Positions 24,023 through 56,940 of a stretch of 64,000 nt of DNA are shown here, piece after piece. Below the pieces are notes generated by a model that saw only the letters and a list, made by a program, of their open reading frames with translations, had not been told where the DNA came from and did no database searches. Numbering within the stretch: the first letter of the stretch is position 1; each line of letters begins with the position of its first letter. The position numbers were made by a program, and so were the translations under genes. Location of the stretch: contig DASTLN010000126.1 of assembly GCA_035714925.1 (NCBI GenBank), positions 5,106-69,105 on the forward strand, given 5' to 3'. The DNA is from Dehalococcoidia bacterium. Lineage in GTDB: Bacteria > Chloroflexota > Dehalococcoidia > DSTF01 > WHTK01.

Positions 24023-24597
24023 GCGCGGATCCAGAGAACAAACACCGTGCCCGGCAGATACTTCGCGCCTCGGACCAGCTTCGCCCGCGGCCATCGCTGC
24101 GCCCGCTCACCAGCATGCCCAGCCCGTTGCAGAACTACGACGGCAGCCGCCTCTAGCGCTGCGTCCGCGACGCGTGGACCTTGAGTCAACGATTCATTGC
24201 CGCTCCGTCCAGTGTGGAGATGGCAGGCCAGTTCGTCCTCACCGGCGAAATGGCCCCGCCACGTTAGACCGGGCTGTCGGCGTCCCTGCCTCGAGTGCAA
24301 CTTTTCCAACCAGCGAAGCTCTTGACCGTCAGCCAGTGGTTCCCCGCCGCTATTGGGCCATTCAACCTGATGACGGCGTCACGACGATCAGGGAGTGCCT
24401 CAGGCAGTTCGCCCACGCTAACTACCTAAGATGCGTGAACCCACGCGACCGTCGCGTGCGGTTAGCGTGACCGAAAGCAGCAGAACGGTTGAGAAGGCGG
24501 CGTAACGGTTTAAGGGACCCCGCAACCGTCAGGCGGTCATGCGTAAACGACAAGCGTGCCGATTCGAGTCTGAGACCGATACGCTGCTAGGCGGAAG

Positions 24598-24650
24598 TGG
24601 CGTCCCTGGAGGGATTCGAACCCCCGACCCGCCGCTTAGAAGGCTCAGTA
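24598..24650 (-). other. tRNA 3'-end-like fragment (variable loop, T-arm, acceptor 3' strand, CCA) with no matching 5' half
   Basis: Minus strand reads GGGTCGGGGGTTCGAATCCCTCCAGGGACGCCA, with canonical GTTCGAATC T-loop and CCA. No complementary acceptor 5' strand or anticodon arm could be folded upstream. Confidence 0.5.
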
Positions 24651-24700
24651 GCGGGAACTACTTGGCGGCGTAACGGTTTTGAATCTGAGAACCGGCCCCA

Positions 24701-24770
24701 GATCCGCCACTTTTCGTGGCTGGCAGCAGAACGGCTTGCACGCCAGTGCATCAGCGCGATGCGATCGTAA
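24701..24770 (+). repeat. direct repeat copy B (pseudo 3' end of VOC gene), partner of 20853-20924
   Basis: Same frame would encode FSWLAAERLARQCISAMRS*, against ...FSWLAAERFAHQCIGAMRL* in the intact gene. Confidence 0.8.
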
Positions 24771-25042
24771 TGCTGGTTGGTGGCACTCTCTACCCGGTAG
24801 GAAGGATCAACGGATTAGGTAGCTAGATAGAGCGCCTTAGTCCGCCGGTCCAACCTGAATCTGAAGCAGCCGCGCCACCGTGCGACTTCGACGTGAGTCC
24901 GTTGGTCTAATTCGACCGCCGCTCGTGAGTTTGCCAGCGTTGGCCGGCGTTTGCACCGGCTTGCCCCGTTTGTCTTCAAAGGTTGGCAGTTCCGGACGAC
25001 GGCGTCCGCAATGCGCTCAGGTGTATTGTGGTGGCGTGCGGT

Positions 25043-26047
25043 CTAGTGGGCGGCTTGGGGCCAAACAGGTGTAAGACGGGGGAACAGGGCGCCGAGGTCC
25101 CTGCCGACGCCTTTCTCCTGAGCGATCTGGTAAAGACGGAAGGCCGGCAGTGTATCCTGGGCGGCCGTGCCGACCGTCTTCAGTAGCGTAACCTCGTCGG
25201 GGCCCTGTCGGCCCGGCCGGACGCCTCCCACGACGTCTTCTAGCGCGTCGATCTCATCCCAGGTCGTGATCCCCTTCTCTACCTGGCGGGTGATGTCCCA
25301 GGACTCCTCGGGGAACGTCTTCTTCGCATCGACCACCACTCGGTCGGCGCGCCGCACGACCTCATCGTCCAACTCGGCCCGCCCAGCGATCGAGCTGACA
25401 TGCATGCCCGGACTGAGCCACTCGCCCAGCAGTACAGGCGGGCGGTTCGGGCCGGTGACGCCACTCCCGCCGATAACGATGTCAGCCCCGTCCACGGCCT
25501 TCTGCGCGGAATCTACGCCGACGATGTCTATGCCTTCGCCTTTAAACCGCCGCACGAACGCGTCCCGGTGCTCCTCGGTCGGGCTGAAGACCTTGCACTC
25601 GCTGATTTCGAAGAGTGTCGAGTGCGCCGCCAGGCTGGCCGACGCCTGGTTGCCCGAGCCAATGACGCCGAATTTGTGCGAGTCGGATCGGGCGAGGTAC
25701 TTCGATGCGATGGCGGCGACTGCCCCGGTACGACGGTCCCTGAGCGTCTGGGCATCGATCATCATCAACTCCGACTGCTCGTCCCAGAGAATGAGCATGG
25801 GGCTCGGCGACAGGGTGCGCAGGGTGGTGATGCCGTAGGGGCGAAGGTAGGCGATCATGAACGCAGGGCTGCCTGGTGGAAGCCCCGGCATGATGGTGCC
25901 CTCTGGGAGCGGCTCGCGCAGAAACTTGAAGCGAGGCATCTCCTCCGCCTGACCCTGCGCCTGCAGCTTGAGCACCTCCTCGCACGCCTCAATGCACAGC
26001 TCGAAGCTGAGCAGCTTACCCACGTCATCCCGGTTCAGGTAGAGCAT
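25043..26047 (-). CDS. ornithine cyclodeaminase / mu-crystallin family protein
   Basis: 334 aa. OCD/mu-crystallin Rossmann region (KFGVIGSGNQA) and overall family similarity. Confidence 0.85.
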   Translation of the reverse strand: MLYLNRDDVGKLLSFELCIEACEEVLKLQAQGQAEEMPRFKFLREPLPEGTIMPGLPPGSPAFMIAYLRPYGITTLRTLSPSPMLILWDEQSELMMIDAQTLRDRRTGAVAAIASKYLARSDSHKFGVIGSGNQASASLAAHSTLFEISECKVFSPTEEHRDAFVRRFKGEGIDIVGVDSAQKAVDGADIVIGGSGVTGPNRPPVLLGEWLSPGMHVSSIAGRAELDDEVVRRADRVVVDAKKTFPEESWDITRQVEKGITTWDEIDALEDVVGGVRPGRQGPDEVTLLKTVGTAAQDTLPAFRLYQIAQEKGVGRDLGALFPRLTPVWPQAAH

Positions 26048-26139
26048 GATGTCCCCTCACAATGCGCGGCGGAACACCGATGGTGCTCCGCCGCGGCAAT
26101 CACAGATGTCGCTCGGACCTTTAAGCTCGGGCGGCCCGG

Positions 26140-26679
26140 CTACTCGCCCTCGCAGACGACCGTCGTGTCGAAGGCGCCACCCAGGGGTTGGGGTCCCTCG
26201 ACCGAGAGGTACTTGAGCCGCGTGGTGCCGGTGTTCCCCATGCCGTGCCACTGGCCCGGCAGGGCGTGGCAGACGTCGCCGGCCTTGACGGGATGCACCT
26301 CGTCGAGGTCCGGGCCGCCGTAGAACTCGCCCTCTCCTTCGAGGATGACCCAGATCGTCTCGGCGTGGACGTGGTGGTGCAGGTACTTGCGGTTGCCCGG
26401 CTCGATGTAGGCGCACTGGATCAGGTGGACGCTGGGCACCTCTCGCCTATCGACCAGGTTGTTGCCCATGATCTGGCCGATGCCGGGCGTACGGAAGGCC
26501 ACCGGGGGTTTTGTGCCGCCCTTGAGCGCCACCGGCCGGAACTTGTCTTCCTTCTTGTACTCCTCCTCGATGTTGAAGGTGCGTACGGTCTTCTTGTCGC
26601 GCCACTCATCTGCCCGCTTGTGTTCGTCGGGCTCGAACTCCGTGGGCGTGAACGGTGGACGGGACTGCTGCTGGACCAT
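26140..26679 (-). CDS. cupin domain protein
   Basis: 179 aa. Cupin His motifs (HHHVHAETIWVILEGEGEF..., HALPGQWHGMGN). Confidence 0.7.
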   Translation of the reverse strand: MVQQQSRPPFTPTEFEPDEHKRADEWRDKKTVRTFNIEEEYKKEDKFRPVALKGGTKPPVAFRTPGIGQIMGNNLVDRREVPSVHLIQCAYIEPGNRKYLHHHVHAETIWVILEGEGEFYGGPDLDEVHPVKAGDVCHALPGQWHGMGNTGTTRLKYLSVEGPQPLGGAFDTTVVCEGE

Positions 26680-26735
26680 GTCTATCCTCCTCTATGCGCG
26701 TGTACTGCTTCCAAGCCGGACCCGCTGATAACGCC

Positions 26736-27437
26736 TCAGATTGAATCCAGACCTTGAGACTCCATGTGGGCGACGATGTCTGCCTTGAGCGATGAGACAT
26801 GACGGCGCACGATCTCCTCGGCCCGTCCGTCTCTCTGCCGCAACGCCTCGACCAGTTCAGCGTGCTCGTCCTGAGCCTTCTCGGGACGGCCCGGCAGGTT
26901 GAACTGGTGCTCCACCGTGGCAAACCGCACCCGCTGCACCCAGATCCGTATCTCACCCAGCAATCGCAGCAGCCGTTGGTTGTTTGCGGCCTGGGCGACG
27001 CAGTCATGCAAAGCCACGTCGGCGGCGTTGAACGTCGGGTAGTCGTTCCGGTCGATCCCTCGTTTCCCCTGCTGAAGATGATCTTCCAGGTGCGCGAAGT
27101 CTTCGGGTGTCATGCGCGCCTGGGCCAGCCGCGTGACCTCCGCCTCCAGCGCCTCACGCACTTCGAAGATCTCCTCGACATCCCGAATGGTCAGGCGGAC
27201 GACGCGCGCGCCGCGGCGCGGCAGCAGCTCGACGAAACCCTCTGATGCCAACCGCACCATGGCGTCGTGTACCGGCGTCGTGCTGACACCGAGTTGCCGC
27301 GCCAGGTCCGACTCCGTGAGCAGGCTTCCGCCGCCAAACTGCGCGTTGCGAAGCGCCGTCCTCAGCTGCTCGTACGCCAGCTGAGATTGGGAGGGAGGCC
27401 GCTCGATGGCAGCCAGAGTGACCAGAGGTGCGCTCAT
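26736..27437 (-). CDS. GntR family transcriptional regulator (FadR/FCD C-terminal domain)
   Basis: N-terminal GntR wHTH (LLTESDLARQLGVSTTPVHDAMVRLASEG) plus FCD domain. Confidence 0.85.
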   Translation of the reverse strand: MSAPLVTLAAIERPPSQSQLAYEQLRTALRNAQFGGGSLLTESDLARQLGVSTTPVHDAMVRLASEGFVELLPRRGARVVRLTIRDVEEIFEVREALEAEVTRLAQARMTPEDFAHLEDHLQQGKRGIDRNDYPTFNAADVALHDCVAQAANNQRLLRLLGEIRIWVQRVRFATVEHQFNLPGRPEKAQDEHAELVEALRQRDGRAEEIVRRHVSSLKADIVAHMESQGLDSI

Positions 27438-27599
27438 AGACGCTCCAATCTTAAGTCTTAGATCTCAGACGATACGCTATCAGGAGAAGCTCCTGCCAGG
27501 CAATGGAATCAAGCATTCTTTCCTTCGATGCTTAGGATTCTTCGTGGCAATGTCAGGACCGGTGGCGCAGACGCTGGCGGGTCGGCTCCCGGCGAGGAG

Positions 27600-28580
27600 T
27601 CAGCGCAGGAGCCGGTCCGCCGTGCCGTGATAGATGGCGTCCTTCTCCGCGCCGGTCAGGTCTTGACGTTCGATTGACTCGATCATGGGCTCATACCCAC
27701 GCGCGAATGGATAATCCGTGCCGAACACGATCTGCGAAGCGCCGACCGTCTGTAGCGCCGCGCTCCAGAGGTTCTGCGCCGGCGTGACCGTGTCGTAGTA
27801 CAGCCTCGTCAGGTAGTCGTGGATCGGCTTCGGCGTCTCGCGCCGCTTGCCGGCTGAGCCCATCGGGCCGGCCCCGCCACCGCCAATTCGGTCCCACGCG
27901 GCCAGCACGAACGCGCCCATGTGCGGCACGATCAGGTTGATGTCCGGGTTCTCCTCGAACACGCCGCTGTTCGCCAGCTTCAGCGTTGCCACGGCGCCGT
28001 CGTATATGAAGCCCGCGCCGGTGGCAATGTCCCAGTCCACGGTCTCTTCGTAAGCGGGGGGCGTTACCGGGTGGAGAAGCACGGTGACTTTCAGCCGGTT
28101 CATCTCGCGATACAACGGCCGAAACCGCTCGTCGTCCAGGCCGACGCCGCGTACGTTCGCGCCCAGCATGACTCCGTGCATTCCCAGGTCATTGATCGTG
28201 CGGTCGAGCTCCTTCAAGGCCGCGTCGACGTGCGGTAGCGGCAGACAGGGCATGCCCTTGAAGCGCTCGGGGTACCTGGCGCAGAGCTCGGCGATGTGGT
28301 CGTTTGTGATGCGGGCCGCTTCGACGGCATCGCTTTCCTTTTCGAAGTAGGCCTGGGGGATCGGGAGAGACAAAGCCTGCACCTGGACGCCAGCGCGGTC
28401 CATGACTTCGAGATGCGCGGCAACGTCCCACATGGCGGGGTTCGTCGAGATCCGGTTATCCAGAAGGAAGGCTGCATGCCGTCCCCAAGGGGTGGAGTCG
28501 TTGTGGACGATGTCGCGAATGAACTCGAGGTAACGCTCGGGATAAATATGGGCGTGCACATCCACGATTCCTGAGGGCAT
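27600..28580 (-). CDS. amidohydrolase-2 family protein (ACMSD/LigW-like metal-dependent hydrolase or decarboxylase)
   Basis: 326 aa. N-terminal VDVHAHIYP and family-typical HxH...D pattern. Confidence 0.8.
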   Translation of the reverse strand: MPSGIVDVHAHIYPERYLEFIRDIVHNDSTPWGRHAAFLLDNRISTNPAMWDVAAHLEVMDRAGVQVQALSLPIPQAYFEKESDAVEAARITNDHIAELCARYPERFKGMPCLPLPHVDAALKELDRTINDLGMHGVMLGANVRGVGLDDERFRPLYREMNRLKVTVLLHPVTPPAYEETVDWDIATGAGFIYDGAVATLKLANSGVFEENPDINLIVPHMGAFVLAAWDRIGGGGAGPMGSAGKRRETPKPIHDYLTRLYYDTVTPAQNLWSAALQTVGASQIVFGTDYPFARGYEPMIESIERQDLTGAEKDAIYHGTADRLLR

Positions 28581-28657
28581 AGTTACTCGCTCCCCGCATT
28601 AATCACAAAGAGATCGCCGCTAAGGATCGAAGGCCGACGTTTCCTGGCAGCGGCTCA

Positions 28658-29569
28658 TTAATCTGCTCTGGGACGGGAGTTTGCCGAGAGCGGCGGCCCC
28701 AGACCAGGCGCGTGCTCTAAACGCCCCCCGGGTGCGAAGTCCTCGATGCTGAGGTGCTCGGCCCCCGCCTCCAGGCGCATGCCGTGTGCGATCGTGTTGA
28801 ACGACAGGGAATGCATCGTCATCGCCGTCGCCTCGACGATCCCCCGGTCATCGAGACCGCAGGAATGTCGCAGTATCTGCGTCTGATAGGCGATCCAGTA
28901 CGGGCTCTGCCTGAAGAGCGCGACGGCGAAGGCCGCGCAGTTCTTCACCAGCTCATCGAGGACTCCGGGTCCGAAGATGAGCCGGTTCTTCCGCCATGCA
29001 GCCTCCAGGAAACGAGGGTGGTGCGCGAAGGCACGCCATATGTTCGGCGCTCTGTCCACGTTCAGCGCCGAGCCCGCCCACTCGCGGATCTCCGCCAGAG
29101 TAGCCGCCGCGTCCGGCGCGGAGGCTTCATCGAGGAGCTCCACCGAGGCGATGGCGGGCGCAACCTCATTGGGGATGTCAGGCTCCAGCCGGAACGCCGC
29201 GGCTGCTGCCGTCAAGCTCGCCATGTGCTCGGCGATCGCCGCCAGCTCGACTACGGCGCGGTCACTGTTGGTAAGCCGCATCACGGCGGCTGAGTGGGCA
29301 GTAAGTCAATAATTGCAGTGGTTCGTCATCGATACGGCTGTGTGTATTGCCTCCTTGGCGAGCCGCGGCAGTTTACCCTGCAGCATGTAAGCCATGCCTG
29401 TCTCCGCGTGGTTGGCTTCCAGCCAGGCAGGCCAGTGGGTCTGCACACCGAAGATCGAGGGGTTCAGAAGCTGCTCGGGAGATTGCCCCGTGCGTTTCGC
29501 CATACGTTCCAGGATGGCGCGGTCATCTTCGGAGAAGTCGGACAGTTTGGGAGTTCGGAGAGTAGTCAT
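28658..29569 (-). CDS. AhpD/carboxymuconolactone-decarboxylase (CMD) family protein with in-frame TGA at 29306-29308 at the second catalytic Cys: putative selenoprotein
   Basis: Track ORFs 29306..29569 and 28658..29284 are in the same frame, separated by one TGA plus 7 sense codons. Read-through gives ...EAIHTAVSMTNHCNY-U-LTAH..., matching the AhpD core E-x11-C-x-x-C-x-x-x-H. A hairpin begins about 15 nt after the TGA. Confidence 0.6.
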
Positions 29570-29766
29570 GGACGATCCTCTTGTCTAGTTCTAACTCTTG
29601 CACCTGGCACCACTCTGGCCGCGTTGGGCTTTCTCTGCCCTCTCCTCCCTTTTGTGGGCGAAAGGGAGTCACAGCCAGTATAGCCAGCGCTTTTAAGGAA
29701 CGGCACTTCTGCCAATCGCTTGGACGCAATCCGGGGCCTTCGATCCGCACCTCAATCTCGACCGTT

Positions 29767-30573: not shown

Positions 30574-30574
30574 C

Positions 30575-31740: not shown

Positions 31741-32877
31741 TCAGCCGAACGCCGACTCGGGCTCGAGGCCAAACGCCCAGCGTGCATACGCGAGGCCCCT
31801 CGGGTCCCAGTTGCAGGCGTGAGTGGAGATGGCGTGGATGTCGCGCCCCGCCCGGTGGATCGGGTTGTTGACATCGATGGCATGCGCGCCGACCGCGGGT
31901 AGCAGGCGATCGACTGCTTGCACGCATAGCTTCGTGGCGTAACCCAGGTCGCGCTCCCATCTGGCCAGCTGCTCTGGGGTCATCTCGCCTTCGGAGTGGC
32001 CGATTGTCACCATCTCATTCATGTCGGCGCGCATCAAAGACAGGGCCGCGTCGACCTCAGCCGATGACTCGGCCAGGCGCATCTGACGACCCACTGTAGG
32101 CGGTCCCGGTCTTGCGTTCATCTGGCTGACATATTCCTCGACGGCGCCCCGGGCCACACCCAGCGCGGGGCTCGAGGTGTTGATAAAGAAGAAGGGTATG
32201 AACGGGATTCGGTAGATGTAGGACTCGTGTAGTGAGGCACCCGGTCTGGCCCCCCACCCCGAGGTCCAAGCCTCCGGCACGAACGCGTCCTTGACGTCGA
32301 CGTCCTTGCTGCCCGTCCCTGCCAGGCCCATCGGGTGCCAGGAGTCGTGATCGATCTCGAAGTCGCGCTTGTGTACCAGGCACCAGGGCGCCCGCCTCTG
32401 TTCACCCTCCAGCGGCCCGCTGAGGAGGATCCACTCCGCGAAGTCGCAGCCGCTGGAGAACTGCCATCGGCCGTTGAGCAGGTAACCGCCCTCAACGCGC
32501 CTGATCTTCCCGGTCGAAGGCGACACCGCGGTGGTCATGAGCGTGTCGGGGCCCGTGCTCCAGACTGCTTCCTGGGCGGGCTCCGGCATCATGCCGAGCA
32601 GCCAGGCGTGGCAGGTGACGACCGAGAACACCCATGCGCTGGAACCGCAGGCGCGACCGATCTGGTTGCATAGCTCGACCTGCGTGAGCCCGTAGTCCAG
32701 CTCGAGGCCGCCGTAGCGCCTGGGCACAAAGACGCGAAGGAAGCCTGCTTCCTTGAATTCGTCGATCGTCTCCTGGGGCAGGCGGCCCTCGGCTTCGGCG
32801 CGGGCGGCCCGTTGCTTCAACGCCGGAAGCATGTCTTCGGCTCGATCGGCGAGTTCGGCGATGGTTGGTGTTTTCAT
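31741..32877 (-). CDS. acyl-CoA dehydrogenase-type flavin-dependent monooxygenase, oxygenase component
   Basis: Start is the internal ATG at 32877 (MKTPTIAEL...) with a GAGGAA RBS. ACAD N, middle and C domains. Paralog of 44932..46092. Confidence 0.8.
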   Translation of the reverse strand: MKTPTIAELADRAEDMLPALKQRAARAEAEGRLPQETIDEFKEAGFLRVFVPRRYGGLELDYGLTQVELCNQIGRACGSSAWVFSVVTCHAWLLGMMPEPAQEAVWSTGPDTLMTTAVSPSTGKIRRVEGGYLLNGRWQFSSGCDFAEWILLSGPLEGEQRRAPWCLVHKRDFEIDHDSWHPMGLAGTGSKDVDVKDAFVPEAWTSGWGARPGASLHESYIYRIPFIPFFFINTSSPALGVARGAVEEYVSQMNARPGPPTVGRQMRLAESSAEVDAALSLMRADMNEMVTIGHSEGEMTPEQLARWERDLGYATKLCVQAVDRLLPAVGAHAIDVNNPIHRAGRDIHAISTHACNWDPRGLAYARWAFGLEPESAFG

Positions 32878-32935: not shown

Positions 32936-34138
32936 TCATGGCCACAGCTGCCGCGTAGCCAGGCGGGCTCCTTCCGCCAGCGCGCCAAACTTGGCCCAGA
33001 CGACGGTCGGGTGGATGTCGGGCTGGCCGCCGCCGCCCGCTGCGAAGCCGCAGTCCGCGCCTGCGATGACGTTCTCACGCCCGGCGATCCTGGCGTATCG
33101 GCAGATGCGTTCGGTGACAAGCTCCGGATGCTCCACAAGGTTGGTGGTGTGTGAGATAACGCCGGGGATCAGCACCTGCCCATCGCGGAGCTTGACGTCC
33201 TCCCAGAGGTGATACTCGTGCTCGTGCCGCGGGTTCGATGCCTCGAATGAGTAGGCGCCGGCATTTATCGTCACCAGGATGTCAATCATGTGCTTCAGCT
33301 CGATGTCGTAAACGCGCGGGCCGATGTCGATGCCGTAGCAGGTATGAAAGCGCACGCGGTCGAGGGGGATGTCGCGCAAAGAATAGTTGGTGATTTCGGC
33401 CGAGCGCTGCGCCCAGGCTCGTGCCTCCTCGATGCTCTTGTCTGGGTGCATCGTCCAGTACATGATCATGCGCGGCTCGTCGACTTGTAGCGTCAGGCCG
33501 GCGTCGATGATGGCGCAGTACTCCTCGTACATCGCGTCGGCTAGCGCCTGGTGGTACTCCTCGTCACTCTTGTAGAACTCGTTGGGGCGGGTCGCGGCGA
33601 TGTAGGCGGCGCCGAGCGATGGCATGAACAACTCTTCGTGGGGGAGCCCTTCTGCCGCTGCCTTGAGTCGTCCGATGTCCCTGGTGACGGCCGAGTGGCC
33701 TTTGTACTTCACTGGCCCTACACAGGTCACGATGCCACCGAAGCCGCCGCCGGTGGTCCCGCCGCCGGCAGGGGCGCCCTGCGGCGCGTTGCGGGCGTAG
33801 AACTCGGGGAAGGCGGCCGCTTCGCGCGTCCCCGCCCAGGGGCCGCGGCCCGCCAGGGTTGAAGGCCGCAGCTCGAAACCCTCCAGTCGCGAGTTGACGT
33901 AGCCGTTGAAGCTGAGCTTGCCCTGCTCGCCATCGTCGATGATGTCGATTCCGGCTTCTGCCTGCTTCTTGACTACCTCGCGCACAGCCTCGTCAATTTC
34001 GCGCTCCAGTTCGGCCGCGTCGTGCTCTTGCCCGCTTTCGCGCGCCCGGATCATCGCCGAGAGGTCGGGACTGCGGGCCAGGCTACCGACATGAGTCGTG
34101 AGGATGCGTTCCGTACTTCTGTTCACGCCTTTTCCCAA
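32936..34138 (-). CDS. MetE-like (cobalamin-independent methionine synthase C-terminal domain family) Zn-dependent methyltransferase
   Basis: 400 aa, Meth_synt_2-like. Zn ligands conserved (FHTCYG, E, ADCGF). Paralog at 39583..40824. Confidence 0.8.
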   Translation of the reverse strand: MGKGVNRSTERILTTHVGSLARSPDLSAMIRARESGQEHDAAELEREIDEAVREVVKKQAEAGIDIIDDGEQGKLSFNGYVNSRLEGFELRPSTLAGRGPWAGTREAAAFPEFYARNAPQGAPAGGGTTGGGFGGIVTCVGPVKYKGHSAVTRDIGRLKAAAEGLPHEELFMPSLGAAYIAATRPNEFYKSDEEYHQALADAMYEEYCAIIDAGLTLQVDEPRMIMYWTMHPDKSIEEARAWAQRSAEITNYSLRDIPLDRVRFHTCYGIDIGPRVYDIELKHMIDILVTINAGAYSFEASNPRHEHEYHLWEDVKLRDGQVLIPGVISHTTNLVEHPELVTERICRYARIAGRENVIAGADCGFAAGGGGQPDIHPTVVWAKFGALAEGARLATRQLWP

Positions 34139-39582: not shown

Positions 39583-40824
39583 CTACTTCGCCCAGAGTCG
39601 CTTCGAGGCGAGCTGCGCCCCTTGGACCATCGCCCTTAACTTCTCCCACATCGGCTCAGAGTGGACACGGGGCAGAAAGCCGGCGAAGGTACCGAAGCCG
39701 CAGTCTGGCGCCGCGATGACGTTTTCGCGGCCCACGATGTTGGCGTAGCGGATGATGCGCTGGGCGACCAGCTCCGGGGGCTCTATGAACAGGCTGACCG
39801 AGTCGATGACGCCAGGGATGAGGATCTTCCCGTCCGGGAGCTTGACGTCCTCCCAGACCTCATACTCGTGCTCATGGCGCGGATTGGCTGCCTCAATCGT
39901 GTAGGCCTGCGCTTTGACCTGGAGAACGATGTCGACGATGTCCTTGAGGGGCACGTCCCGATGGTGCGTCCCGTAAGTGTTGCCCCAGCAGATGTGAAAG
40001 CGGATGCGATCCTCAGGGATGTTTTGAAGAGCGTGGTTAAGCGCCTCGACACGAAGGGCCAGGTGCTTCCTGTAGTCCTCGAAAGGAATCTGCCACAGCT
40101 GGCGGTTGCGCATCATCGGCACGTCCGGGGCGTCCAGCTGGAGCAGGAAGCCGGCGTTGACGATGGCCTCGTACTCCAGCTTCATCGCGTCGGCCAGCGC
40201 ATAGAGATACTCGCTATCGGACTTGTAGTGGGCGCTGCGGATCATGAAGATGACCTGCCCCACGGCCACGGATGGCATGAACGCCTCTTCGTACTGCAGT
40301 CCCGTCAGCGCCTCCTTGAGGTTGGCGAGGTCCGTCTCCAGTTCCCCGCGCTCGTCTTTCCAGCCGATGGGGCCGATGTTGCGCGGCAGCGTGCCGATCT
40401 GCGCCGCGACCGGTGAGCGGCCGGGGGGCGGCGCAGCAGTCGCGGCGGTGGCTGAGCCGCTGCCCAGGCCGACGCCGCCGATGGGTCCGGCGCGCCCATA
40501 GCGACGCGAGATTTCGGCAAACTCGGGAAAGTCGTCAGGCGGACCGGGCCAGGGTTCCGATTCGACCGCCTCGAATCCGGAGAGGCGGTCCTTCATGTAG
40601 TTCGTGAAGCTGCCCTTGCTAATCTCGCCGTCCGCGACGATGTCGATGCCGACCTCGACCTGCTTCTTGACGACGGCCGCGACCTCTTCTTTCACACGCC
40701 GCGCCAGCAGGTCTTTATCGTACGGCTCGCCGGCGTCCTTGGCCAGGAGCATCTCGCGAATGTCGGGCGGCCGTGGCAGGCTGCCCACGTGAGTGGTAAG
40801 GATTCGATCGGTGCTCCGCTTCAT
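39583..40824 (-). CDS. MetE-like Zn-dependent methyltransferase family protein (paralog of 32936..34138)
   Basis: 413 aa. Conserved N-terminus (RILTTHVGSLPRPPD), Zn ligands H-x-C (FHICWG), E, C (PDCGF). Confidence 0.8.
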   Translation of the reverse strand: MKRSTDRILTTHVGSLPRPPDIREMLLAKDAGEPYDKDLLARRVKEEVAAVVKKQVEVGIDIVADGEISKGSFTNYMKDRLSGFEAVESEPWPGPPDDFPEFAEISRRYGRAGPIGGVGLGSGSATAATAAPPPGRSPVAAQIGTLPRNIGPIGWKDERGELETDLANLKEALTGLQYEEAFMPSVAVGQVIFMIRSAHYKSDSEYLYALADAMKLEYEAIVNAGFLLQLDAPDVPMMRNRQLWQIPFEDYRKHLALRVEALNHALQNIPEDRIRFHICWGNTYGTHHRDVPLKDIVDIVLQVKAQAYTIEAANPRHEHEYEVWEDVKLPDGKILIPGVIDSVSLFIEPPELVAQRIIRYANIVGRENVIAAPDCGFGTFAGFLPRVHSEPMWEKLRAMVQGAQLASKRLWAK

Positions 40825-44931: not shown

Positions 44932-46092
44932 CTAATGAAACGGGTCGAGGGGCGGCAGGCCCAGGGCCGCTCGTCCGTACCCCTCCGCGATGGAATCCCA
45001 GTAGAGTGCCATCTGATGCGAGCCGGCGTGGATGTCACGGTGGAACCGCTGCAAGGCCTGCGACTCGTAGAGAGCATGGCCGCCGCTGGCCTCGAATAGC
45101 CGGTTCGCGGCCTGCAGGCAGAGCTTTGCCACATAGCCATAGTCGCGGCGAATCCTTGCCTGCTCGAGTTCGTTCGGCAGTTCACCACGCGAAGCCTGTT
45201 CCAGCACCTCTCGCGGCGTGGTCTTGACAATGCGCCTGGCGGCGTCGATTTCGGCCGAAGACTCAGCGATTCGCAATTGGATCGCAATTGAGTCGGCCGT
45301 GCGACCCGGACCGGTCTTGCCCTGAAGCTTCTCGATGAAAGCATCGAGCATGCCCTGGGCCATGCCTACCAGCGGGGAGCACAGCGTGAAGGGCAGCAGG
45401 CTCATCGTCGGCAACCGGTAGCTCGGCCGACCGTGGAGCTCGAACCCTGGGCTGTCGTAACCGGGGAGCATGAGTGCTGCGACGCGGTGAGCCGGGACAA
45501 ACGCGTCCTTGATTTCGATGTCCTTGCTCCCCGTCCCGCGCAGGCCGGAGACGAACCACGTGTCCAGGATCTCGTAGTCTGAGCGCGGCACGAGGGCCAT
45601 GCACGGGCCAGCCGGCCCCATCGCCCCGAGCATGGCCCAGCTGGCGCCATCGCTACCGCTGGAGAAATCCCAGTGCCCGTTAAGGCGGAAGCCGCCCTCC
45701 ACGGGTTCGATTCTTCCCTGAATCGCAAAGGCGCTGGAGCCGAGCACGTCCGGCCCGGCCGCGAAGTACTCTTCCTGGGCCTCCAGCGGCCAGTGGCCGA
45801 TCATCCAGTCGTGACTGGACCACACGGAGAAGCACCAGGCCGTGGAGCCGCAAGCGCGGCCGATCTCCATGTCGAGCTCGAAGTAGAGGTCCATGTCGGC
45901 GCCGTCATAGCCCCCGAAACGGCGCGGGTTGCCGACTCGAAGCAATCCGGCGGACCTGAGGTCGTCGATGGTCGCCTGCGGTATCTGGCGCAGCTTCTCA
46001 GCCTCTGACGCGCGTTCCTTGAGGACAGGCAGGAGGTCGGCGGCTCGATTCAGCAGGTCCTCCCTGCTGACGGTCTCGGCTTCGATGGCCAT
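44932..46092 (-). CDS. acyl-CoA dehydrogenase-type flavin-dependent monooxygenase oxygenase component (HsaA/C2-like; paralog of 31741..32877)
   Basis: 386 aa, ACAD domains. Divergent from the LysR gene. Confidence 0.8.
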   Translation of the reverse strand: MAIEAETVSREDLLNRAADLLPVLKERASEAEKLRQIPQATIDDLRSAGLLRVGNPRRFGGYDGADMDLYFELDMEIGRACGSTAWCFSVWSSHDWMIGHWPLEAQEEYFAAGPDVLGSSAFAIQGRIEPVEGGFRLNGHWDFSSGSDGASWAMLGAMGPAGPCMALVPRSDYEILDTWFVSGLRGTGSKDIEIKDAFVPAHRVAALMLPGYDSPGFELHGRPSYRLPTMSLLPFTLCSPLVGMAQGMLDAFIEKLQGKTGPGRTADSIAIQLRIAESSAEIDAARRIVKTTPREVLEQASRGELPNELEQARIRRDYGYVAKLCLQAANRLFEASGGHALYESQALQRFHRDIHAGSHQMALYWDSIAEGYGRAALGLPPLDPFH

Positions 46093-50314: not shown

Positions 50315-50896
50315 ATGGGTGAGGAGCATTACAAGCTGCCGCCGCCGATGCCCAAAGACCCGGACTACGTGTATCCAGCACGCGCGGATCGCGTGTCCAA
50401 CGACGCGCCGCTAGAGTCGGCGCGCCCCGGTCGTGTCACGCCCCATGTGGTCGCCGAGGTCATCCTGCACGAGGGCCAGCTCAAGGAGGGGCGCGTCCAG
50501 GGGTTCACCATCCGCTGCGACGAGGGGCTGTATATTCCGGGCGCCACCGATACGGCGCCGTCACCGCTCGGCTACTTCACGACTGCGATCGGGTTTTGAA
50601 TGGGCACGCATATTGCGGGCGTCGCCCGCAGACAGAACCTGGACTTGAAGGTGAAGATAACCGTCGACGGCGAGTACTTCTCTGAGGGCTCAATCTTGCG
50701 CGGCGACCGTAAGGCCGGTGCCGAGTCGGTTCAAGTCAACGTGGCAGTCGAGGGGGAGCACCCACCAGACCTCATCGCCCGCATCGTCCGGGAGGCAGAG
50801 GCTGGATGCTTCACGATAAACGCTCTGCGCAATCCCTCACCAGTGACCGTCAGCGCGACACTGAACGGCTCGTCCGTTCAGGAGTCGGCGGTCTAG
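50315..50896 (+). CDS. OsmC/Ohr family peroxiredoxin with in-frame TGA at 50597-50599 at the peroxidatic Cys: putative selenoprotein
   Basis: Track ORFs 50189..50599 and 50600..50896 are contiguous and in-frame. ATG at 50315 after GGAGGAG. Read-through gives ...TAIGF-U-MGTHIAGVA... and a downstream AEAGCFTINAL (resolving Cys, OsmC CxxxNAL motif). GC hairpin about 15 nt after the TGA. Confidence 0.6.
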
Positions 50897-50915
50897 CTAC
50901 AGAAGACGAGGACTC

Positions 50916-51815
50916 ATGCCTGTAAGACCTGCGCCGAAGTGGCAGACCGGCCTGCAGGAGGTCGCGCCCAACACCTACGCCTACCTGCAGCACGACGGCA
51001 GCTGGGGGATCAGCAACGCCGGCTTTCTGGCCGGCGACGACGGCCTTCTCGTCATCGACGCCACGATGGTGGCCTCCATGGCGGAGGCGTTCATCAAGGA
51101 GATCCGGCGCGTCTCGGACAAGCCGTTTCGGCACTTGATCAACACGCATAGCCATCCCGACCACATCGGCGGTAACCGCCTTTTCACGGGAGCCGAAATC
51201 ATCAGCCATCGCATCTGCCGCGAGGAAATGGCGGGGACGTGGACCAGACCGCTCGCGGGCGAGCTGCCGCGAGGGCCGATGAGCCTCATGCCCCGGACGC
51301 CCGCGCTTGAGCGGATGTTCGAGATGGTGGCGAACGACCCCGACCGCTCCATCCCCTTACCGGACGTCACCTACGACGACAGTCTCACGCTGCATTACGG
51401 TGAGACGGAGGTTCAGCTTCTCTACTACGGTCCGGCTCACACCTTCGGCGACACGCTGGTCTACTTCCCGCAGTCGAAGGTCCTGTTCGCGGGGGACGTG
51501 GCGTTCTTCTATGCCATGCCCCTCGTGGCGGGCGAGGTCGGTGGCTGGCTCCATGTCATCGACCGCGTCAAGGAGCTGGACATCGAGCTTATCGTCCCCG
51601 GCCACGGGCCGGTTGGCGGAAAGCGGGAGCTGGAGGATGAGCGCGAGTACTTCGAATTCGTGATGGAGCAGTCGCGTAGGTGCTTCGAGCGTGGCCTGAC
51701 GCCTGAGGAGGCGGTCAAAGAAATAAACCTGGGGCCCTACGCCGAGTGGCCGGAGGCCGAGCGCTTCATCGCCAACGTCGCCGTGGCCTACCGAGAGTTG
51801 CGCGGCGAACTTTGA
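50916..51815 (+). CDS. MBL-fold metallo-hydrolase
   Basis: 299 aa. NTHSHPDHIGG motif. Confidence 0.8.
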   Translation: MPVRPAPKWQTGLQEVAPNTYAYLQHDGSWGISNAGFLAGDDGLLVIDATMVASMAEAFIKEIRRVSDKPFRHLINTHSHPDHIGGNRLFTGAEIISHRICREEMAGTWTRPLAGELPRGPMSLMPRTPALERMFEMVANDPDRSIPLPDVTYDDSLTLHYGETEVQLLYYGPAHTFGDTLVYFPQSKVLFAGDVAFFYAMPLVAGEVGGWLHVIDRVKELDIELIVPGHGPVGGKRELEDEREYFEFVMEQSRRCFERGLTPEEAVKEINLGPYAEWPEAERFIANVAVAYRELRGEL

Positions 51816-51853
51816 TCGGGGCCGATGTCACAACGAAGGTGGGACACTGAGCG

Positions 51854-52315
51854 ATGCCTGGTCCCTCGGTAAGACGCGTGATCACCGGACATAACGCAGG
51901 AGGGCTCGCGGTTGTTCAGACGGACGAGGTCGCCCGCGGGGCGCGGTTTACCCTGATCTGGACAACGGAGGGCTTTCCGGTGGATAACACGGATCCTCGC
52001 GATGGGGGCGAGCGAGAGGTTGGTATTACCATACCTGGAGGCACGGTGTTTCGCGTAGGCGAGATCGGGCCCGGCGCCAGGTCTCCAATGCACCGCACCA
52101 ACTCCGTCGACTACGGCATCGTCCTCGAAGGCGAGCTGGACATGGAGCTGGACGGCGGCGACCGTGTTCATCTCAAAGCGGGTGACGTGGTGGTCCAGCG
52201 TGGTACGAATCACGCCTGGATAAACGACAGCCACCAGCCTGCCAGGATGGCCTGGATCCTCCTCGACGCCGAGCCGGTCCGCATCGGCGACCGCGTCCTG
52301 GAACCGACGATGTGA
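51854..52315 (+). CDS. cupin domain protein
   Basis: 153 aa. Cupin motifs (RSPMHRTNSVDYGIVLEGEL..., GDVVVQRGTNHAW). Confidence 0.7.
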   Translation: MPGPSVRRVITGHNAGGLAVVQTDEVARGARFTLIWTTEGFPVDNTDPRDGGEREVGITIPGGTVFRVGEIGPGARSPMHRTNSVDYGIVLEGELDMELDGGDRVHLKAGDVVVQRGTNHAWINDSHQPARMAWILLDAEPVRIGDRVLEPTM

Positions 52316-52325
52316 GCCGCGTGAT

Positions 52326-53015
52326 ATGGACAAGGTATTCGACAGCCCGGCTGCAGCCATCCACGACGTCTTCGACGGCGCGACGATCATGTTCGGCGGC
52401 TTCGTGTCGGCCGGCAGCCCGACCAACCTCATCCTCGCCCTGTACGAGAAGGAGACGAAGGACCTCACCGGCATCGCCAACAATATCGGCCTCGGCGACA
52501 AGCTGGACGTCCTCTGCGAGAAGAAGCAGCTGCGCAAGATGATCGCATCATTCGCCATCCGCGCCTCGGCCAAGCGGCAGAGCCTGTTCGAGCAGCTCTA
52601 CGCCAAGGGCGAGGTCGAGTTGGAGCTGGTGCCGCAGGGTACGCTGGCCGAGCGCATCCGCGCGGGCGGCGCCGGCATACCGGCCTTCTACACGCCGACC
52701 GGGGTCGGCACTGTCGTCGCGGAAGGCAAGCGCGTCGAATGCTTCGACGGCCGCGAGTACATCCTGGAGCGCGCGCTGACCGCCGATTTCGCCTTCATCC
52801 GCGCCCACAAAGCCGACCACCACGGCAATCTTATATATAGAAGGGCATCACGAAATTTCAACGAGATCATGGCCACCGCCGCCCGCGTCACCATCGCCGA
52901 GGTCGAGGAGATCGTCGAGCCCGGCGAGCTCGATCCCGAGGCTATCGTCACACCCGCCGTTTACGTCGACCGCATCGTAAAGGCGCCTGCTTATGACGTC
53001 CGCTGGTTTAACTAG
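52326..53015 (+). CDS. 3-oxoacid CoA-transferase subunit A (PcaI/ScoA/AtoD family)
   Basis: 229 aa. Canonical subunit A N-terminus and blocks (GFVSAGSP, ELELVPQGTLAERIRAG). Confidence 0.9.
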   Translation: MDKVFDSPAAAIHDVFDGATIMFGGFVSAGSPTNLILALYEKETKDLTGIANNIGLGDKLDVLCEKKQLRKMIASFAIRASAKRQSLFEQLYAKGEVELELVPQGTLAERIRAGGAGIPAFYTPTGVGTVVAEGKRVECFDGREYILERALTADFAFIRAHKADHHGNLIYRRASRNFNEIMATAARVTIAEVEEIVEPGELDPEAIVTPAVYVDRIVKAPAYDVRWFN

Positions 53016-53658
53016 AGAGCTGATCGCGCTGCGCGTGGCGCGCGAGCTGCGCGACGGCATGGTCGTCAACCTCGGCATCGGCCTGCCCACTCTCGTTGCG
53101 AACTTCCTGCCGGAGGACGCAACCATTGTCCTGCACGCCGAAAACGGCATTCTCGGCTACGGCGGCATCGTCACGGACGAGGCCGAGTTCGATCAGGACC
53201 TGATCAACGCCGGCGGCCAGCCGGTGACGCTCGCCCCGGGCGCGTCGTTCTTCGACAGCGCGACGTCCTTCGCCATGATCCGCGGCGGTCACGTCGACGT
53301 CACCGTGCTGGGTGGGCTGCAGGTCTCGGCGCAGGGTGACCTGGCCAACTGGGCCGTGGCGGGCCGGGGCGGCGGCGCCATCGGCGGCGCTATGGACCTG
53401 GCGGCGGGCGCCAAGCGCGTCATCGTCGCCATGGAGCACACCACGCGTGACGGCGAGCCGCGCATCCTGGAGCAGTGCACCTATCCGCTGACCGCGCAGC
53501 GCTGCGTTGACCTCATTGTCACGAACCTTGCAGTCATCGAGGTAACCGGCCAGGGGCTGGCGCTTCGCGAGGTCGCGCCGGGCGTTAGCGCCGATGAAGT
53601 GCGGGCGGCGCCGGCAGCGCGGCTCATAATTGAAGACGTGAAGGTCGTGGACCTCTAA
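52993..53658 (+). CDS. 3-oxoacid CoA-transferase subunit B (PcaJ/ScoB/AtoA family)
   Basis: 221 aa. Subunit B blocks ([10 protein letters not shown], catalytic-Glu region AMEHTTRDG). 23-nt overlap with subunit A. Confidence 0.9.
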
Positions 53659-53695
53659 CCGTGCAGGGCGCCTGAGCGGTGCAGGCGCCGGGAGA

Positions 53696-54877
53696 ATGGC
53701 AATGGATGAAGTAGTCGTAGTTAGCGGCGCCAGGACGGCCATCGGCCGTTTCCAGGGAGGCTTCGCCGAGACGCCGGCGTCGGATCTCGCCGCGGCCGTA
53801 ATCAAAGCTGCCGTCGAGCGAAGCGGTCTGCAGCCCGAGCAGGTCGACCAGGTTGTGCTGGGCTGCGTCGGCCAGGTGATGGAGGACGCTTACATCGCCC
53901 GTCACGCCGCCGTGAAGGCGGGTCTGCCGATCGAGGTGCCGGCCTACACGGTCAACCGTATCTGCGGTTCCGGCCTGGAGGCGATCAACACGGCCGCACG
54001 CTGGATCGAGTGCGGCGACGCCGAGGTTGTCGTCGCAGGCGGCGCCGAGAACATGACGCGGCTGCCGCACTACCTGCGCGCCGCCCGCTCTGGCTATCGC
54101 CTTGGCGACGGTAAGCTGGAGGACGGCATCCTGCACGTGCTGAGCGACCCCTTCAACCGCTACCACATGGGCGTCACGGCGGAGAACCTGGCGGCCGAGT
54201 TCGAGATATCGCGCGAGGTGCAGGACGAATATGCGCTGCGCAGCCAGCGACGCGCCTCCGCCGCCCTAGCCGCCGGCCGCTTCCAGGACGAAATCGTGCC
54301 GCTAGAGGTACACAACGGCCGCGAGACATTGGTCGTCGACCGCGACGAGCACCCCCGCGAGACCTCGACGGAGGCGCTGGCGAAGCTCTCGCCGGCGTTC
54401 AAAGAAGGCGGCAGCGTAACGGCCGGCAACGCCAGCGGCATCAACGACGGCGCCGCGGCGGTCATGCTCATGTCCGCTGCGAAGGCGGGCGAACTTGGCG
54501 TGGCGCCGAAGCTGCGCCTGGTCGCCAGGGCGGAGGCCGGGGTGCGGCCGGAGATCATGGGCTCAGGGCCGATCCCGGCCGTCGAGAAGGCGCTGGCCAA
54601 AGCCGGATTGACCGTCGACGATCTCGACGTTGTAGAGCTAAACGAGGCCTTCGGCGCGGTCGCTGCCGCCTGCAGCCTCGCGCTGGGACTCGATCCCGAA
54701 AAGGTGAACCCTAACGGTGGCGCGATTGCGCTGGGCCATCCCGTCGGCGCTTCCGGCGCAATCCTGGTCGTCAAGCTGATGTACGAGCTAGAGCGCCGCC
54801 AGGGCCGCCACGGCATGGTCACTCTTTGCATCGGCGGCGGGCAGGGCATCGCCACCATCTTCGAGCGCGTTAGTTGA
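53696..54877 (+). CDS. acetyl-CoA C-acyltransferase (thiolase; PcaF/FadA-like)
   Basis: 393 aa. Thiolase active-site regions ([38 protein letters not shown]). Confidence 0.9.
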
Positions 54878-54887
54878 GGAGAGAGCG

Positions 54888-55916
54888 GTGAGAGTAGTCG
54901 TTTACGGGCCGGAGCGCAGGGTTGGCATTCTGGAAGGCGATAGCGTGGTCGACGCCGAGCGCGCCTACGCCAAGCTGGCGCACGAAGTCCAGGACCACCC
55001 CGCGCCGTACAGGGCGGCCACCGCGACCGCGCCGGCGGACCTCGAGGCCTTCATCCAGCTCGGCGACAGGGCGATTGATGCCGCACACGAGGCCGTCGAG
55101 TATCTAGGGAAGCGCCGCGCGGATCAGTCTGGGCCTAGAGGCGAGCCGGTCGTCTTCCCACTTTCGGAAGCGAGGCTGCGCGCGCCGCTGGCCCACCGCG
55201 GCGTCAAGCTATGTATGGCCGGGGCGAACTACGCCGACCACCTCTTCGACATGATGCGGGCGCAGGACCCCAGCGTGACCATGGCGCAGGTCAAGGAAAG
55301 GTCGCGCGAGCGCGGCATCGGCGGGTTCTGGAAGCACCCGTCGTTCGTTGCGGACCCCGAGGCCGACATCGTCTATCCCGCAAAGACCCGCTACCTCGAC
55401 TACGAGGGCGAGGTAGCCATCGTAGTCGGGAAAGCGGCAAAGGACGCGAGTGCAGGCGACCTGCTGGACTACATCTGGGGCTACACGCTGCAGAACGACT
55501 GGAGTGCCCGCGATCAACGCGACAACGCCGTGGGCACGCTTTCCTTTGCCGGCATGAAGAACTGGGACGGCTCATCGTCGATTGGGCCGTGCATCGTCGT
55601 TGGCGAGATCAAGGACCCGCAGGACATCGACTTTCAGACCACCGTCAACGGCGAGCTGCGCCAGAACGGCAACACCAGCGGGATGACCTTCAGCTTCGCG
55701 GAGTACCTGGAGTACGCGACCCGGGATGTCACATTCACCGCCGGAGACATGATCGCCGCCGGCACCTGCAAGGGCACGGCGATGGACTCGACGCCTCGTA
55801 TCGAAGGCGGCGGTTTCGAGAACGACAAGCTGTTCTTGAACGCGGGCGACGTGGTCGAGGTGTCGTCGCCGCAGATCGGCGCGCTGCGCAACCGGGTGGT
55901 GGCGAAGAAGGCTTAG
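54888..55916 (+). CDS. FAH family protein (third paralog)
   Basis: GTG start after GAGGAGAGAG. FAH blocks (YEGEVAIVVGKAAKD, YTLQNDWSARD). Confidence 0.85.
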   Translation: MRVVVYGPERRVGILEGDSVVDAERAYAKLAHEVQDHPAPYRAATATAPADLEAFIQLGDRAIDAAHEAVEYLGKRRADQSGPRGEPVVFPLSEARLRAPLAHRGVKLCMAGANYADHLFDMMRAQDPSVTMAQVKERSRERGIGGFWKHPSFVADPEADIVYPAKTRYLDYEGEVAIVVGKAAKDASAGDLLDYIWGYTLQNDWSARDQRDNAVGTLSFAGMKNWDGSSSIGPCIVVGEIKDPQDIDFQTTVNGELRQNGNTSGMTFSFAEYLEYATRDVTFTAGDMIAAGTCKGTAMDSTPRIEGGGFENDKLFLNAGDVVEVSSPQIGALRNRVVAKKA

Positions 55917-56627
55917 CTCAGCTTCGAATCGAAGGAAACGGGCAACTTCCCTGGCCGCAAACACGACCATGCGCGACCGCACACTGTTCCTAGACCCAAC
56001 GAAGGCGCCGCTGAACGGGGAGGCCTGGTGCGGGGCCGCGTAAGACCGCCGGACTCTGGATCGCTACTCCCTTCAATTTGTATAAGAAATGTGTAAGAGC
56101 TGGAGGACCCTGGGGACTTAGCGTCTTCCAATAGGGAGGCGGTTACGCCGGCGCAGCGCCTTTGTGTGCGGGAGACAAGAGACTCACCTGTGGCTAAGAA
56201 ACAAAAGGCGATGCTTCGCGCACAATGATGCGCACGCGCGCACGTCCTAGGCGATCTTAGATTAGTCACCGGAGGAGACGCGAGTAAGCCTCAGGTCGCG
56301 TGAGCCAGTACGCGTCGACGACATCGCCCGATCTCTGGGCGATGGAGGACACCGACTGGCCGCGGGGGCGATTATTGAAGGTGGCCTCAAAGAGGTTGTT
56401 TCTGCGGTTCTGGGGCGTGTTAGCACTTACCTCCGAGGGCGCGAGCAAGCAGTCCGACCGATGGATGAGTCAAACCGATAGATGAGTCAACCAGTACCAC
56501 CGCTCGAAAGGCGGCGTAACTGTCTCGCCGCTGACCTTCGCAACGATTTACTCAGACCCAATCGAAACAGTCGAACCGGACTTCAGGAGCAGCTCGCTTA
56601 TATCTGCCGGCAGGAGCCATTCAGGGT

Positions 56628-56940
56628 GCGTGAACAGCACGTGACGTCTGCGTGCGGTCAGCGCGATGGAAAGCAGCAGAACGGTTGGGGAAAGCAGCAG
56701 AACGGTTTGGGGGCGCTCTCCGCTCTGTCAGGCGATCCTGCGTAAACGAAAGCGTGCCGATTTCGAATCTCGGGCGCCCCTCAACCCGGCCGGGATGACC
56801 GACGGATTAAAAGGTAGCTAGATACGTCGCCTTAGTCCGTCGGTCCATTTTGAACCTTAATCGACCGGGCCACCCGCCGGGACCTTTCGACATGAGTCCG
56901 GTGGTCTATTTCAGCCGCCGTTCATGAGTTTACCTATGTT
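56628..56940 (+). repeat. non-coding interspersed repeat copy R-c (direct orientation relative to R-b)
   Basis: Aligns to the flanks of 24430-24960. Begins with tandem GAAAGCAGCAGAACGGTT x2. Contains a 10-bp perfect inverted repeat GACCGACGGA...TCCGTCGGTC. Confidence 0.7.

Follow-up and report, generated by a model that had tools for sequence, protein, structure and literature searches.

Two diverged repeats around a catabolic gene block in a soil Dehalococcoidia genome as probable recombination-site pieces of islands at tRNA-Arg(UCU)

Among the described systems, two come closest to the locus analysed here. The first are the cis-mobilizable elements (CIMEs), whose definition and whose tandem accretion with integrative elements have been set out for islands such as those related to ICESt1/ICESt3 of Streptococcus thermophilus (PMC5704250). 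The second are the genomic islands at ssrA of Dehalococcoides (ssrA-GIs), which lie in tandem downstream of ssrA and are separated by direct repeats of its 3' end (PMC3146451). In the ssrA-GIs the repeat is 20 bp long, the target is a transfer-messenger RNA (tmRNA) gene and most islands carry a module with the serine recombinase DsiB, some having no integration module and being proposed to be cis-mobilizable (PMC3146451). The locus in question lies in a 64,000-nucleotide stretch of a Dehalococcoidia genome (contig DASTLN010000126.1, positions 5,106 to 69,105), hereafter the window, in which a 31-kb block of catabolic genes stands between two non-coding repeats, R-b on its left and R-c on its right, with a partial third copy, R-a, further to the left. 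Islands and prophages with tyrosine integrases reportedly insert at an anticodon-loop sublocation of tRNA genes, a pattern associated with the work of Williams in Nucleic Acids Res in 2002.

We read R-a, R-b and R-c as pieces of the recombination sites of an island family that integrates at the 3' end of tRNA-Arg(UCU) genes in soil Dehalococcoidia, with a probability of roughly 65%. The array in the window is best read as a CIME-like tandem island array at tRNA-Arg, a known architecture of mobile DNA in a new lineage. The repeats are built from three blocks, A, B and C, and from t, a fragment of the tRNA gene. From left to right the array consists of a truncated vicinal oxygen chelate (VOC) gene joined to C (R-a), genes for an HxlR regulator, a major facilitator superfamily (MFS) transporter and a hydrolase, the succession A-t-C-B (R-b), the 31-kb block, the pair A-B (R-c), and then SRPBCC, PAS-GGDEF and further genes.

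The initial annotation had described R-b and R-c as colinear copies on the same strand, and this held. By BLASTN of the window against itself, block A (24432-24571 against 56627-56770) aligned at 79.6% identity over 147 columns (E 1.9e-22) and block B (24788-24956 against 56780-56955) at 75.0% identity over 176 columns (E 3.7e-25), both pairs in the same order and orientation. All of the sequence blocks that had been quoted are present (GAAAGCAGCAGAACGGTT, TGCGTAAACGA.AAGCGTGCCGATT, GGTAGCTAGATA...CGCCTTAGTCCG.CGGTCCA, GAGTCCG.TGGTCTA and TGAGTTT), the sequence is not low-complexity, and with E values of about 1e-22 to 1e-25 the concern that the similarity might be insignificant or due to low-complexity runs falls away. 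The long non-coding stretches that had been pointed out were measured at 1,020 bp for R-b (24023-25042) and 1,336 bp for R-c (55917-57252), and the two bracket the genes at 25043-55916. The outer boundaries of A and B are sharp, the copies being unrelated beyond them, and the longest run of identical bases between R-b and R-c is only 19 nt.

R-b had been taken for one repeat of about 500 bp. Its blocks A (24432-24571, plus strand) and B (24788-24957, plus strand) are indeed shared with R-c, but they are split by a 216-nt insert (24572-24787) that R-c does not have. This insert, overlooked before along with a 3.5-kb islet on the left (20834-24644), holds t on the minus strand (24598-24644) and block C on the plus strand (24664-24770), of which 24681-24770 matches R-a (20834-20924) at 86.8% identity (E 1.6e-23). 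Block C contains a palindrome, ACGGTTTTGAATCTGAGAACCG, and block B a palindrome with 14-bp arms; in R-b block B also has a third copy of the arm motif, GACCRACGGAYT, and its right boundary is sharp. In R-c, block A (56627-56770, plus strand) carries two tandem GGAAAGCAGCAGAACGGTTKG units (56668-56709), and block B (56780-56955, plus strand) abuts it directly, with neither the tRNA core nor block C between them; the arms of its palindrome lie at 56797-56810 and 56832-56845, and the third copy of the motif about 57 nt further.

The putative att core, t, comprises the 3' 47 nt of tRNA-Arg(UCU); it starts in the anticodon loop, includes the anticodon UCU and the T-arm, and ends with CCA. At 47/47 positions it is identical to the corresponding stretch of the tRNA-Arg(TCT) genes on two related contigs, L035 and L039. 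Having no 5' half, it is too short to be called by ARAGORN, which reported no tRNA or tmRNA gene in the window; a permissive Rfam scan gave t only a weak tRNA-like match. When both repeat regions were searched against a plasmid database by distant BLASTN, the sole matches were those of t to tRNA genes of unrelated bacteria.

The architecture to which t and its neighbouring blocks would belong can be followed on L035, a contig from a sister sample that was reached through a 93%-identical homologue of the hydrolase. Positions 174-3380 of L035 match the window at 20834-24041 with 95.1% nucleotide identity. Going right from the hydrolase, L035 has block A (homologous part at 3443-3536) and an inverted 12-nt motif before an intact tRNA-Arg(TCT) gene (3606-3681, minus strand), beyond which lie DUF6391 and other unrelated genes; at the left end a 50-nt copy of the tRNA 3' end is followed by block C. 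Because of these two ends, the HxlR-MFS-hydrolase unit is, as judged from its sequence, an islet of 3.5 kb that has inserted at the tRNA-Arg(UCU) 3' end and is bounded by the usual direct repeat. The junction of its circular form would have the order A-t-C, and R-b contains just this order, the two ends of the element joined through the core. Within the window, it is this islet (E1, 20834-24644) that documents the family best.

With the DUF6391 neighbour as an anchor, two long contigs, L038 and L039, were found in other samples, and in both DUF6391 is followed by tRNA-Arg(TCT). On L038 the tRNA gene is succeeded by LysR, RibD_C and cupin genes and then by block C with a tRNA fragment. On L039 it is succeeded by 60 nt that resemble the end of A, by genes for SnoaL and HD/GerE proteins, a partial C, a tRNA fragment and the same 60 nt again; there is a perfect direct repeat of 106 nt, and the internal C-t-A junction resembles R-b. 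A fourth contig, L040, the sole informative match of a metagenome scan with the t-C junction pattern, has HAD and GNAT genes followed by t-C-B and an ABC/FtsX gene pair. The intact tRNA gene thus abuts the element on L035, L038 and L039, with block A or its last 40-70 nt adjoining the gene in two of the three and a tRNA fragment with block C at the far end in all three. Distal tRNA fragments are present on all four contigs including L040, and each is adjoined by a homologous block C.

Some of the neighbouring genes on these contigs also have counterparts in the window. The cargo beside t-C-B on L040, an ABC ATPase and a large FtsX-type permease (4498-8519), matches the window at 4850-8927 with 72-76% nucleotide identity, where the pair adjoins no repeat. 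On L039 a gene that resembles a GH15 glucoamylase (17358-19184) is found a few kb away from the tRNA-Arg array, and in the window such a gene stands a few kb to the right of R-c (61881-63692), with 76% identity between the two over 164 nt. The two are not oriented in the same way to the tRNA fragment, and the gene could be a remnant of a shared backbone or a paralogue.

The tRNA-Arg(UCU) genes of these genomes occur as two alleles with compensatory changes in the T-stem, GGGGG/CCCTC and GCAGG/CCTGC. On L035 the intact gene (3606-3681) and the displaced distal fragment (91-140) carry different alleles, the fragment having that of the L038 gene (10530-10605). Integrase-mediated replacement of the tRNA 3' end by an incoming element would be expected to produce this split.

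These observations can be joined into the following mechanism. The circular form of an element would carry a site equivalent to attP with the order A-t-C, sometimes extended by B. Its integration would rebuild the tRNA gene, leaving A beside the gene and t-C at the far end, and repeated integration would stack elements so that each internal junction reads A-t-C. R-b would then be an intact, attP-like junction between two stacked elements, with its block A as the P-arm of one and its block C (24664-24770) as the P'-arm of the next. The catabolic block (24958-56626) would be the cargo of the second element, E2, having C-B as its left arm and A as its right arm, and it may have moved as one unit. 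R-c would be the next junction minus t and C, most simply a deletion derivative, and because these two parts are lost it is probably no longer recombinogenic.

This differs from one of the readings proposed before, namely that R-b and R-c are scars of integration. The duplication left by one integration event would comprise the tRNA core only and would initially be identical in its two copies, whereas the parts shared by R-b and R-c are arms at 75-80% identity and R-c has no core. It is therefore a better reading that the two are homologous arms belonging to separate elements, which diverged long ago and now stand side by side. A related possibility is that the repeats arose as a duplication, either from a single 31-kb insertion or from a segment duplication, and that homologous recombination between them still allows the block to be excised or amplified. 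Their common strand, their colinearity and their position on both sides of the block agree with it. We consider it quite improbable, since the repeats are only 75-80% identical when E1 differs by just 5% between two genomes, the core, which is the sole sequence expected to be duplicated, is in R-b and not in R-c, and block A of R-b belongs to the neighbouring islet E1 according to L035. Since no run of identical bases exceeds 19, the excision or amplification of the block by homologous recombination between the repeats is unlikely.

Additional support for a site-specific system comes from a 12-nt motif, GCRGCRKAACGG, which occurs in the forms GCAGCAGAACGG or GCGGCGTAACGG. On the plus strand of the window it is found at 20877 (R-a, as GCAGCAGAACGG), 24477 and 24497 (two direct copies in block A of R-b), 24665 and 24723 (block C of R-b), 56673 and 56694. 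An inverted copy, GCAGCGTATCGG, lies at 24576-24587 on the minus strand, 22 nt from the tRNA fragment, and L035 has GCAGCAGAACGG at the same position and orientation (-21). Relative to t the motif falls at offsets of about -121/-111, -101/-91, -22 (inverted), +67 and +125. R-b has all five of these offsets, on both arms; the right end of L035 has the three on the A side, the left end of L035 and L040 have the two on the C side, L038 has the motif at +67 only, and the arms of L039 have none at one mismatch. The motif reaches 3.6 per kb here, 17 times its density elsewhere in the window (0.21 per kb).

Fixed offsets of this kind are what arm-type sites for a tyrosine-type integrase and its helper proteins would be expected to show. 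Multiple arm sites around a core in the segment of a tRNA gene from the anticodon to the 3' end are typical of tyrosine integrases with accessory factors, and short sites suffice for large serine recombinases. On this basis the putative recombinase would be of the tyrosine type. The palindrome of block B would fit a second DNA-binding protein. The two irregular breakpoints of the array, VOC|C and A|B (in R-c), both fall at a TCGA(A/G)TCT motif that is also present on both sides of t; that they arose by aberrant recombination is speculation. A sigma-54 promoter was considered for TGGCAGCAGAACGGCTTGCA and rejected by eye, the spacing being four bases too long.

No gene for a recombinase accompanies these sites. 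Pfam finds no integrase or transposase in any ORF (open reading frame) of the window, as the initial annotation had stated, and no integrase or recombinase domain in the 10-kb flanks of L035, L038, L039, L040 and L041; on L035, L038 and L039 there is no integrase on either side of the tRNA gene. The cargo of E1 and of the catabolic block consists of regulators, transporters and catabolic enzymes only, with no genes for integration or transfer. Scans of viral contigs with five patterns, including the tRNA half, gave three chance 18-mer matches and two chance matches in coding sequence, and no phage or provirus helper. Since none of the elements encodes an integrase, any movement, present-day movement included, would depend on a recombinase encoded elsewhere and acting in trans, as in the accretion of CIMEs. 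The earlier view of an element that is immobilised or mobilised in trans fits both the window and the five related loci, for which no integrase is listed. Its broader suggestion, that the repeats belong to a site-specific integration system, was strengthened by the 47-nt match of R-b to the 3' end of tRNA-Arg(UCU) and by the same blocks flanking integrase-less islets at the tRNA gene on three contigs.

The left end of the array is formed by a truncated VOC/glyoxalase ORF (20583-20924, plus strand). Its Pfam Glyoxalase domain covers residues 6-80 (profile positions 1-88 of 121), its last ~30 codons come from block C, and the homology of block C (R-a, 20834-20924, plus strand; ~95% identical to L035 174-263), the P'-arm at the left end of E1, begins at 20834, exactly where the ORF loses its domain. 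The truncated ORF thus marks the left breakpoint of E1 in this genome. No recognisable missing 3' part of the VOC gene was found by six-frame translation of the sequence after R-b or R-c.

The cargo of E1 (21131-24022), according to Pfam, comprises the HxlR regulator (21131-21610, minus strand), the MFS transporter (21562-23118, plus strand) and an alpha/beta hydrolase (23138-24022, plus strand). The hydrolase has more than 100 homologues with 79-93% identity in soil metagenomes, some of them in metagenome-assembled genomes labelled Vicinamibacterales or Casimicrobiaceae, which hints at transfer across phyla or at binning errors. Exact protein matches place the window on two contigs of ENA assembly ERZ27256989, and NCBI lists the proteins under a Dehalococcoidia metagenome-assembled genome. 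In this megahit assembly of the same sample, the MFS gene is broken at about 21872-21891, where the contigs k141_2477097 and k141_4310402 overlap by ~20 nt; the window is continuous here, and the join looks genuine because the Pfam MFS_1 match spans it. Between the stop codon of the hydrolase and block A, 324 nt (24042-24365) have no counterpart in the 95%-identical L035, and this indel contains no clear ORF.

The catabolic block, with genes at 25043-55916, encodes, by Pfam, ornithine-cyclodeaminase-like (OCD) and cupin proteins, GntR and LysR regulators, amidohydrolases and a luciferase-like monooxygenase, together with an HpaB-type hydroxylase, an extradiol dioxygenase, FAA hydrolases, a CoA transferase, a thiolase and two family-5 solute-binding proteins. 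In a search with nhmmer, none of A, B, C and t recurred inside the block (24958-56626). The block has diverged paralogue pairs, namely two Meth_synt_2-like genes (32936-34138 and 39583-40824) that are ~75% identical over part of their length, in several stretches, and two acyl-CoA-dehydrogenase-like genes with one short stretch in common (32274-32328 and 45492-45546). These pairs suggest the internal duplication of a catabolic module. To its right, the non-coding stretch of 710 bp upstream of R-c (55917-56626) has a lower GC content (0.587) and no Rfam match, and contains a 17-nt sequence repeated in tandem (AGTCCGACCGATGGATG / AGTCAAACCGATAGATG, 56451-56484) as well as a lone one-base variant of the 12-nt motif, GCGGCGTAACTG, at 56511.

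On four further contigs, L041-L044, an OCD protein that is 89% identical is encoded at the end of a similar catabolic cluster, and this end abuts block C, with neither B nor a recognisable t. It follows from these OCD-C junctions that the catabolic cluster is tied to an arm of type C in more than one genome, as far as sequence comparison goes, and that B is an indel relative to them. By the same kind of evidence B would be an optional extension of the P'-arm, and a genuine continuation of C in a subfamily of the elements, because t-C-B on L040 is contiguous and 81% identical to the window at 24598-24957.

The indel could also be explained in another way, with B and possibly A as small non-autonomous insertions or intergenic mosaic repeats that landed independently near the ends of the block, in the manner of miniature inverted-repeat transposable elements (MITEs), repetitive extragenic palindromic (REP) sequences or bacterial interspersed mosaic elements (BIMEs). 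B is present in R-b and not at the orthologous OCD-C junction of L041-L044, it has sharp boundaries and an internal palindrome with 14-bp arms, and it stands beside A in R-c and beside C in R-b and on L040. A short GGTTGG-like repeat, a weak reading made by eye, flanks the insertion in R-b relative to L041 and might be a duplication, but convincing terminal inverted repeats of B are not seen. All three copies of B lie against an att arm, and nhmmer detected none of the three blocks elsewhere in the 64 kb and a 10-kb flank or in L036, L037 and L045. The 18-mer of block A, GAAAGCAGCAGAACGGTT, gave 27 single chance matches of at most ~30 nt in unrelated taxa among 185,579 species genomes. We therefore regard this explanation as unlikely for the blocks together, an independent small insert being possible for B alone. 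The worry that the repeats might be REP-like elements found throughout the genome was likewise not supported, as no extra copies of the three blocks turned up in these 74 kb or in the unrelated loci of the relatives.

Two further explanations concern what the blocks themselves might encode. They could be small structured RNA genes or cis-regulatory leaders, present as duplicates on either side of the block, as would suit conserved non-coding sequence with hairpin potential and a palindrome in B that, by eye, keeps G-U-compatible changes in some copies. In the window, no Rfam match reached the gathering threshold, and a permissive scan of the repeats gave only chance-level matches; the covariation terms of RNAalifold, computed for either strand of B and for seven copies of C, were zero or unfavourable; scans for sigma-70 promoters and terminators found nothing in the blocks; and the copies do not agree in how they are oriented to the genes beside them. 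An RNA function for the blocks is thus very improbable. That they are decayed protein-coding genes, for instance of an old integrase, is harder still to credit, although the long intergenic stretches and their slightly lower GC content (0.58-0.62) would agree with it. There are stop codons in all six frames next to and between the repeats, no ORF there resembled a known protein by eye (no family-library scan was made), and conservation follows short DNA motifs and palindromes instead of a codon-periodic pattern.

Returning to the islands at tRNA-Arg(UCU), several observations weigh against our interpretation. No member of the family with an integrase was found in the genome, metagenome and viral collections that were scanned. 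ARAGORN found no intact tRNA-Arg gene in the window, nor in the next 10 kb on the right, and since this is so the array is not shown to stand at its target gene; nor does the 74.7-kb source contig have a homologue of the tRNA neighbour DUF6391. The left end of the array is the truncated VOC gene and not a tRNA fragment, making it a rearrangement breakpoint, and as R-c has no core, a proper att site is present on one side of the 31-kb block only. The GC content of the block (0.640) is close to that of its flanks (0.644), so that there is no compositional sign of a foreign origin. In the catabolic cluster of L041, block C is present, t is unrecognisable and the internal gene order is different, and B, being an indel relative to L041, may be an independent insert. 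Lastly, the motif offsets come from 3-5 sequences with a handful of copies.

A more far-reaching idea is that tRNA-Arg(UCU) serves as a platform for the stacking of cassettes, on which a portable module of ~0.5 kb (A-t-C with an optional B) is attached to unrelated blocks of 2.5-31 kb, all of which one recombinase encoded elsewhere in the genome would capture, stack and exchange. We hold this to be doubtful but worth stating; labour would be divided as in integrons, with a tRNA att site as the basis, and whole catabolic pathways could be moved. Every member seen, in five or six genomes, has no recombinase and yet keeps a recombination module of ~0.5 kb, which leaves open an integron-like, helper-dependent system and points to a helper encoded elsewhere. 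If such a helper exists and is active, it could provide a route by which pathways for the degradation of aromatic compounds or heterocycles spread among the Dehalococcoidia. The islands would offer a concrete account of how an uncultured and abundant soil lineage acquires and shuffles catabolic clusters. Their signature, the 3' half of tRNA-Arg(UCU) flanked by GCRGCRKAACGG motifs, could help to mark out islands in metagenome assemblies that are fragmentary.

Compared with the known systems, the array occurs in the same bacterial class as the ssrA-GIs, sharing with them the tandem arrangement, the repeats of a small-RNA gene, additional conserved sequence around the repeat and a variable metabolic cargo. 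It differs in its target, tRNA-Arg(UCU), in a repeat of at least 47 nt, in arms of ~0.5 kb with repeated motifs and in having no recombinase in any member seen. Membership of the ssrA-GIs themselves was considered and rejected on account of the tRNA-Arg(UCU) target, the absence of a tmRNA gene from the window (ARAGORN) and the absence of a DsiB-type recombinase domain.

The likeness to tRNA islands of tyrosine integrases lies in a repeat that extends from the anticodon loop to the 3' end, in a replacement 3' end as seen in the alleles of L035 and in flanking motifs in both orientations. A direct repeat of the tRNA 3' segment is found both in the window (24598-24644) and on L039 (106 nt), but unlike in those islands there is no integrase gene at the tRNA-proximal end. 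REP, BIME and RIME repeats and MITEs resemble the blocks in being modular non-coding units with palindromes that are combined differently in each copy. In the sequence available, the blocks are by contrast neither dispersed nor high-copy, and every copy is associated with a tRNA-Arg fragment or with the boundary of an island. With the gene cassettes of integrons the islands share variable cargo units that carry a conserved recombination site, are stacked and would be moved by a recombinase outside the unit. They differ in having no intI/attI platform beside the array, in sites that are tRNA-derived cores with long arms and not attC hairpins, and in a cargo of up to 31 kb.

The closest likeness is to the CIMEs. 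These too are att-bounded islands with no genes for integration or transfer; they line up one after another at the 3' end of their target gene, each separated from the next by an attP-like junction, and they need an external recombinase. Here, no integrase-bearing partner, whether an integrative and conjugative element (ICE) or an integrative and mobilizable element (IME), was found, the host is an uncultured member of the Dehalococcoidia, the target is tRNA-Arg(UCU) and R-c is coreless. As for the att sites that a CIME retains, E1 has both on L035 and the 31-kb block has the core in R-b and not in R-c; Pfam scans of the cargo found no genes for integration or transfer. The likeness to CIMEs is one of architecture, with mobility putative and descent from an ICE or IME conjectural.

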